A DNA stretch of 6,947 bases, taken from IMG/VR virus record IMGVR_UViG_3300032220_001230, positions 1 through 6,947 of that record; one strand, given 5' to 3'. The stretch is from a virus. The notes beneath the pieces were generated by a model. That model made no database searches and was not told the origin of the DNA. It was given only the letters and a program-made list of their open reading frames with translations. Both the position numbers and the translations under genes were made by a program. Positions 107 through 134 of this stretch are shown here, piece by piece (within the stretch, counting starts at the first letter, position 1; every line of letters starts with the position of its first letter).

Positions 107-134
107 ACTTCGTATAATGTATAATATGTCAATT
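107..134 (+). other. dif-like XerC/XerD recombination site 1 (6-bp central region)
   Basis: ACTTCGTATAA-TGTATA-ATATGTCAATT compared with the gammaproteobacterial dif pattern as I recall it (nATTCGCATAA-TGTATA-TTATGTTAAAT). The XerC arm matches 9/11, the central region 6/6 and the XerD arm 8/11. It sits in the intergenic gap between the replication and structural modules. Confidence 0.6.
113..125 (+). promoter_or_regulatory. Possible -10 elements for the structural operon
   Basis: Two overlapping consensus TATAAT hexamers (113-118, 120-125) lie upstream of the structural genes. I found no convincing -35. The hexamers are part of the dif-like site, so the match may be incidental. Confidence 0.25.

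Follow-up and report, generated by a model that had tools for sequence, protein, structure and literature searches.

A duplex dif-like site at the replication/structural boundary of a CTX-like Acinetobacter inovirus is probably a working Xer recombination site

Xer-exploiting phages are classed by a single attP type. The attP of TLCphi has a degenerate XerD arm and a centre identical to that of dif; TLCphi is a satellite, and its integration needs its own activator, XafT. One side of the gonococcal genetic island carries a perfect dif and the other a dif-like site whose XerD arm is imperfect (difA/difB), an arrangement that limits, but does not abolish, Xer-mediated loss. Plasmid pdif sites usually occur as inverted pairs with varied centres and, in one study, showed no excisable-cassette behaviour (preprint 10.1101/2024.04.09.588662). 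In CTXphi arrays, rolling-circle production would be possible where a replication module lies downstream (PMC4246890). Our literature search for Xer-exploiting elements in Acinetobacter returned plasmid work only. Two papers that deal with filamentous prophages of A. baumannii mention replication modules at the flanks and copies in tandem, but a dif-like site appears in neither. The phage analysed here carries both a folded and a duplex site, and its natural arrays use both Xer sites, at opposite ends. From sequence comparison, we consider it probable (roughly 0.7) that the duplex site, named S, which mimics the host dif and lies where the replication and structural modules of a CTX-like Acinetobacter inovirus meet, works as a duplex site for Xer recombination.

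The window (the whole stretch of DNA that was analysed, 6,947 nucleotides) is a circular inovirus contig with a unit of 6824 bases, positions 1-123 being repeated at 6825-6947. The unit length and the positions of S and of a second Xer site, P+, define two arcs (Table 1), and their gene content agrees with a previous sequence-only reading of the window, which had separated a structural arc from a regulation/replication arc. Acinetobacter phage M02 was the single match among deposited phages, and relatives of the window Rep were found in Acinetobacter chromosomes and in viral contigs. Small ORFs of CxxC or C2H2-like zinc-finger type adjoin both Xer sites, one after S and the other before P+ (3961-4185); their Pfam matches were sub-threshold only (zf-C2H2, E 0.019). 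A G+C-rich block of 80 bases (4420-4500) lies directly after the folded attP in a genome that is otherwise A+T-rich, and relatives have different G+C-rich sequences at this place. A minus-strand origin and a packaging signal are both possible roles for the block.

Table 1. Positions of the Xer sites, IHF-consensus motifs, arcs and genes in the window.
Feature	Position	Strand	Description
IHF-consensus motif 5' of S	84-96	+	AATCAAGGGCTTA; 10 bases 5' of S; 3' half of a small hairpin after ssb
Site S, duplex dif mimic	107-134	+	XerC arm ACTTCGTATAA (107-117); centre TGTATA (118-123); degenerate XerD arm ATATGTCAATT (124-134)
IHF-consensus motif 3' of S	136-148	+	AATCAATAACTTA; abuts the degenerate XerD arm of S
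Structural/assembly arc	135-4270	+	Small CxxC ORF, 67-aa ORF, coat, pIII-like, DUF2523, Zot, two small ORFs
Small CxxC ORF	162-269		
Coat gene	490-762		
pIII-like protein gene	796-2184		
DUF2523 gene	2177-2455		
Zot gene	2468-3919		
Regulation/replication arc	4271 to 106 of the next unit	+	2660 bases; P-, repressor-like gene, 87-aa ORF, Rep_trans, ssb-like gene
P+	4271-4300	+	Top-strand half of the folded CTX-type attP; AGTTCGCATAA-TAATTAGA-TTATGTTACTT; 8-base centre
P-	4391-4419	-	Inverted partner of P+; AATTCGCATAA-TGAAGAT-TGATGTTAAAT; 7-base centre
Repressor-like gene	4536-4757	-	
Rep_trans gene	5111-6589		
ssb-like gene	6579-6890		

The sequence-only reading had described S as a dif-like site with a good XerC arm, a 6-bp TGTATA centre and an XerD arm matching at 8/11 positions, and we find the same. 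When the window was scanned with a generic dif pattern (RNTKCGCATAA-N6-TTATGTTAANT, ≤3 mismatches), S was the sole match, with 0.01 expected per window; 2/200 shuffled sequences contained a match. The similarity improved when S was compared with the true host dif. The dif of Acinetobacter ADP1 is GATTCGTATAA-TGTATA-TTATGTTAAAT (PMC2731167) and the dif rebuilt from the integration locus of the window's own phage is TGTTCGTATAA-TGTATA-TTATGTTAAAT; 15 contiguous bases (TTCGTATAATGTATA) are identical in S and in both of these sites. The inner 9 bases of the XerC arm of S (TTCGTATAA) are those of Acinetobacter dif, and the outer 2 vary, as they do among dif sites. The central region is identical to that of the host dif in 6/6 bases, and the XerD arm (8/11 vs. 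the host dif) retains the pattern ATATGTnAAnn across relatives. S had also been read as a duplex-form site, unlike the folded pair at 4271-4419. No inverted partner for S was found in the window and the S region has no significant fold, whereas P+ and P- form a hairpin as single-stranded DNA (4270-4421, -34.5 kcal/mol, z -7.6) with a bulged central region. It is this pair, and not S, that has the CTXphi-type arrangement of two inverted dif-like sites in a hairpin with a bulged centre. S and P+ are in direct orientation and lie at both module boundaries, as had been proposed.

The 20-base core of S (TCGTATAATGTATAATATGT) was present without any change in at least 119 inovirus-sized viral contigs, and a variant with the XerC arm CGCATAA was present in 26 further contigs. 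In every carrier, S is located 3' of the replication/ssb arc and 5' of the first structural gene; in many other Rep relatives, which lack S, ssb directly abuts the next gene. The core is invariant in 101 unique S regions while both flanks are variable, and the XerC arm follows the host type (CGT vs. CGC). S is genuine, a copy of the host dif that filamentous Acinetobacter phages have conserved widely; non-conservation in relatives, which would have spoken against the site, was not observed. The S-bearing element is common (>140 contigs, A. baumannii clinical isolates among them). For motif scoring we used WATCAANNNNTTR, which we take to be the IHF consensus. An exact match lies ≤1 base from the end of S in 99/101 unique S regions (background 0.36 per kb), and in 72/101 a further exact match on the same strand ends 9-17 bases (once 20) upstream of S. 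The window as a whole has 8 exact matches vs. 0.89 expected. One of them (4300-4312) lies inside the hairpin, directly next to the XerD arm of P+, and the repressor-like gene contains two others, 4611-4623 (-) and 4714-4726 (-).

S contains two TATAAT hexamers (112-117 and 119-124), and a universal T-to-A change converts TATATT of dif into TATAAT. Together with the IHF motifs that flank S and the first structural gene just downstream, this would suit a transcription element, consisting of a -10 region and IHF sites for the structural operon, whose likeness to dif is incidental. However, a consensus scan of positions 1-600 predicted no full two-hexamer sigma-70 promoter, a promoter needs no invariant TTCG...ATAA arm, and the junctions with the chromosomal XerD arm described below would be left unexplained. 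A purely transcriptional S is therefore highly improbable. The -10 hexamers are the only basis of the earlier suggestion that Xer binding and transcription could interfere; promoter activity as a secondary, dual role of S is possible.

The look-up of the window's ssb protein returned contigs from many samples, and a 600-kb metagenomic scaffold (L233) contains the window unit with 6824/6824 bases identical. At its left junction (7693), the chromosome continues into TGTTCGTATAA|TAATTAGATTATGTTACTT, which is the chromosomal XerC arm joined to the central region of P+. The array then runs through P- (7841), a replication arc, S with the window's own flanks (10353), the structural arc, native P+ (14517), P- (14665) and a second replication arc, and it meets the chromosome again at 17177. 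This right junction reads ...aaaac ACTTCGTATAA TGTATA TTATGTTAAAT agaagatttggaaacctacc, that is, the XerC arm of S followed by a perfect chromosomal XerD arm, and it falls within positions 109-123 of the window. The spacings 7693-14517 and 10353-17177 are each 6824, and the insert of 9484 bases corresponds to one unit plus one replication arc of 2660 bases. The two replication arcs flanking the structural arc differ solely at two XerC-arm bases. The same array was found in another sample (L235, left junction at 2326). The form of the right end means that S exchanged with dif somewhere in the shared 15 bases, and integration junctions do use S, at the right end of the window's own prophage. Xer catalysis is the simplest cause of this exchange. 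At the left end, the junction agrees with what single-strand integration of CTX type via the folded pair would give (PMC4246890). The terminal redundancy of the window contig stops exactly at base 123, the last base common to S and dif; the assembly graph may have forked there, with S and the S-dif junction both present in the sample.

An unbiased scan for perfect Acinetobacter dif returned 39 contigs, in which the left flank was an S-type replication-arc end in 28, a structural-arc end (usually before P+) in 3, native chromosomal sequence in 1 and other sequence in 7; these proportions may be biased, as proviruses in the viral collection are trimmed and some junctions could be hidden by this. 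Recombinant dif junctions with the crossover inside S were found in L233, L235 and these 28/39 dif-bearing contigs. Right ends of P+ type, with the XerC arm CGCATAA, were found outside the perfect-dif scan (L128, L164, L234 and L231). On their right, S-type and P+-type phage sides are followed by one and the same chromosomal flank, a(a/g)aagatttg(a/g)aaacctaccatatataagg. A perfect dif one phage length downstream of S and in direct orientation was present in L001, L060, L075, L124, L159, L163, L200 and L206. On the other side, an unbiased scan for the chromosomal left flank returned 7 contigs, with P+-type left junctions in 6/6, and L163 has a P+-type left junction too, in a different host flank. 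The chromosomal XerC arm joined to the phage centre on the packaged strand, as in a CTX-type left junction, was found in L233, L235 and the 6 flank-scan contigs.

These junctions bear on the possibility that S is the main duplex attP, of VGJphi/TLCphi type, through which the double-stranded replicative form enters an empty dif. Such integration predicts a left junction made of the chromosomal XerC arm and the XerD arm of S, and a right junction made of the XerC arm of S and the chromosomal XerD arm. The right junction is exactly as predicted, and a full central match with a degenerate XerD arm is also what TLCphi has. However, the predicted left junction was never found: among ~150 S sites, none had a chromosomal left flank and all had a phage-type one, and both the flank-scan left junctions and the window's own array lie at the P+ site. 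A Pfam and PHROG search of 12 window ORFs detected no XafT (DUF3653) and no other accessory protein above threshold. We consider this explanation unlikely, and the earlier idea of an alternative duplex attP for a naive dif finds no support, given left junctions at the 4271-type site.

Arrays and replication-arc elements of relatives repeat the arrangement seen in L233. Hybrid sites composed of the S left flank, the XerC arm of S and the P+ central region were found 13 times, in several distinct phage lineages. In L163, whose unit is 6836 bases long, a hybrid at position 806 is followed by S (2960), native P+ (7642) and dif (9796), and differences between its two replication arcs are limited to two XerC-arm bases. 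The reciprocal hybrid (P+ XerC arm, TGTATA and S XerD arm) was absent from viral contigs and from JGI metagenome contigs, the latter being a weak negative; its absence fits the loss of a non-replicating circle. A replication-arc hybrid specific to the window was sought in metagenome contigs only and was not found, again a weak negative. A lone replication arc with a Rep homologue and chromosomal flanks on both sides is present in L186 (337-3121), further replication-arc-only cases are L179 and L201, and L113 has tandem replication-arc units of 2040 bp. The elements of L186 and L113 have the 4271-type site and S as their exact bounds and correspond to RS1-like satellites, with repressor, Rep and ssb, without structural genes, and located at dif. 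Standing alone or in tandem at dif, and with relatives that swap modules at S (see below), they bear out the parallel that the sequence-only reading had drawn with the core and RS2 of CTXphi.

Some Rep relatives without S are inserted at dif in the opposite orientation (L005 8948-18185, L029, L044 1023-8560, L045 and L013). In these arrays the perfect dif comes first, followed by phage sequence, and the units end in a phage XerC-like arm, a 7-8 base centre and TTATGTTAAAT next to the chromosome. From this form, the crossover seems to be on the XerD side and the packaged strand to be the bottom one, unlike CTXphi. Just beyond the A. gerneri chromosomal dif of L005 there are two more dif-like sites, 18882-18909 (+) and 19414-19441 (-), with centres CGCCCA and GGTGTA, which resemble plasmid pdif sites.

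Several deposited records contain S-bearing phages; the limits given to at least one phage record in GenBank and to one 'plasmid' record appear to be wrong. The 28.6-kb 'plasmid unnamed1' of A. pittii (CP017939, L242) carries at 522-22061 three full copies and one replication arc, from P+ to S, between both chromosomal dif flanks; it is probably a chromosomal fragment or a mis-assembly. The M02 record (GenBank OQ693633, L001; 6243 bp, deposited as 'circular') has S at 111-138 and a perfect dif at 5927-5954. Its positions 1-127 equal 5817-5943, and 5944-6243 resembles the chromosomal dif flank of other contigs, so that the record consists of a 5816-base unit, a 127-bp repeat/junction and 300 bp of chromosome-like sequence. 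The smallest circular size given by its authors is 5,816 (PMC12285184).

The 6977-bp circular 'plasmid' pM131-7 is an episomal S-bearing phage. Circular episomes of this kind, recorded as small plasmids, would be expected if S were mainly a cer/psi-like resolver of multimers of the episomal replicative form, with dif junctions as occasional by-products, and the conserved motifs beside S could then be accessory sequences. Yet S-type junctions are the dominant right end (28/39), which is hardly the frequency of a rare by-product. No accessory region of ~180 bp of the ArgR/PepA type is evident; only short IHF-consensus motifs are conserved beside S. In addition, rolling-circle replicons seldom need multimer resolution. 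A main role as a resolver is thus quite improbable.

Comparison of relatives shows that modules have been exchanged at S. The structural arc of the window is 94-96% identical to that of L123 from position 101 on, while the replication arcs are unrelated. Conversely, the replication arc is 95% identical to that of L022 up to position 66 and the structural arcs are unrelated. The first copy of L234 has a different Rep lineage to the left of S and is window-like from 101-107. The breakpoints expected at both module boundaries were thus clear at S; the second boundary (~4010-4850) was less sharp. The sequences to the left and to the right of S are freely combined among these phages. In the XerC arm, the outer two bases track the left flank (71% vs. 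16% background), while the XerD-arm variant is linked to neither flank (right flank 34% vs. 31% background), which indicates that exchanges near S were not all in the 6-base centre. Exact mapping of crossovers by linkage failed for this reason to localise the exchanges to the central region. Exchange is concentrated at S and the conserved block around it, beyond the 6-base centre alone, and homologous recombination within this block of ~45 bases also contributes. L234 also carries a heterologous array (1-14871), in which a replication arc of Phage_CRI type is followed by S, a window-like genome, another S and a second structural arc that ends in a dif junction of P+ type; two S sites thus bracket the window's replication arc. 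We rejected this array as proof of S-by-S insertion. Its structural arcs are 99% identical, so homologous recombination explains the array equally well.

The unlinked XerD-arm variant, which places some exchanges outside the centre, and the high mosaicism of these phages throughout would also be compatible with S being a scar or short conserved block of ordinary homologous recombination without Xer, in which dif junctions arise via the shared 15 bases. Nevertheless, RecA recombination is inefficient over 15 bases, too short a stretch for this route. Furthermore, the S-dif junction recurs in many lineages and forms the majority right end, and the core of S stays invariant among varying flanks and tracks the host-type XerC arm. 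Recombination without Xer as the sole origin of S is very improbable.

We therefore return to S as a working Xer site. We infer that XerC/XerD catalyse the exchange at S, as well as the direction and order of the events that follow. Single-stranded DNA would enter via the folded pair, and an XerC-type top-strand exchange would join the chromosomal XerC arm to the P+ centre. The next partner of S would be the dif that is restored at the prophage's right end, or else a dif beside a resident element. Entry at P+ followed by S-dif exchange would lead to arrays that start with P+, end with S and contain one replication arc in addition to n full copies. If an internal S recombined with the S-derived dif at the end of the array, exactly one whole phage circle would be released, its S undamaged, and a replication-arc-only element and a functional dif would stay in place; the reverse reaction would reload a full copy. 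On a fresh single prophage, the S-dif reaction would delete the structural arc and make an RS1-like element. Between different resident phages, S recombination would reshuffle replication and structural modules. Further S-by-dif events (circle excision, re-integration of the replicative form, loss of the structural arc) preserve the P+-to-S form, which would explain why this form dominates and P+ right ends are rarer. By analogy with CTXphi, phage could then be produced from the chromosome by rolling-circle replication, since a replication module would lie downstream of the structural genes. In these reactions, the A at base 124 and the IHF motifs may play a part. The arrays fit three routes alike, namely deletion of a terminal structural arc, S-mediated integration of the replicative form beside a resident replication arc, and integration of a replication-arc satellite on its own in the CTX manner. 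Each of these routes calls for S recombination at least once per lineage.

These arrays touch on two questions raised by CTXphi, the exit of an irreversibly integrated phage and the origin of the RS1 satellite. A satellite-like replication module cut out exactly at S offers a concrete way for an irreversible prophage to become an excisable one accompanied by a satellite, and S also offers a site-specific route for module shuffling. As the S-bearing element is always at dif, it bears on chromosome dimer resolution and on the delimitation of filamentous prophages in A. baumannii.

The system resembles CTXphi in its folded single-strand attP of two inverted dif-like sites with bulged centres, in a left junction as for XerC top-strand exchange, in its tandem arrays at dif and in the presence of the replication/regulation module alone beside full prophages (RS1). 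Rep_trans is found in both phages, while the host and all sequences differ. However, the RS2/core boundary of CTXphi lacks a dif-like site, and the limits of RS1 are not set by such a site either, whereas here the satellite-like element is delimited by S and the right end of the array is at S, not at the folded site. The gonococcal island differs in being large and not a phage; here, the imperfect site is inside a phage and separates two functional modules. Acinetobacter plasmid pdif/XerC-XerD sites (xrs) share with S the same host recombinases and the same arm consensus, and several of them on a single small replicon separate modules that can be exchanged (preprint 10.1101/2024.04.09.588662). 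By contrast, S has the chromosomal centre TGTATA and lies in the same orientation as dif, to which it is found joined.

VGJphi and S are alike in having a single duplex dif-like site on the replicative form and a right junction of the expected form, and in VGJphi excision with neighbouring elements yields hybrid phages. The dif match of VGJphi is only on the XerC side of a 7-base centre, whereas S matches all 6 bases, and both attL and attR are seen in VGJphi, whereas only attR was found for S. The attP of TLCphi shares with S the degenerate XerD arm and the dif-identical centre. TLCphi needs XafT, which was not detected in the window ORFs, where an unrelated factor is possible, and S, unlike the TLCphi site, lies within a complete phage that also carries a CTX-type attP. 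On the compared sequences, the combined system would have a CTXphi- and RS1-like left side and a TLC/VGJ-style duplex site on the right. Tentatively, and at somewhat less than even odds, we suggest that it represents a fourth style of Xer exploitation beside CTX, VGJ and TLC, in a large family of Acinetobacter inoviruses: a folded single-stranded attP would provide irreversible entry, while an internal IHF-flanked duplex mimic of dif, possibly with IHF as accessory factor, would make lysogeny reversible in cis, with whole circles excised and reloaded, a native-type dif restored, RS1-like satellites shed and modules swapped.
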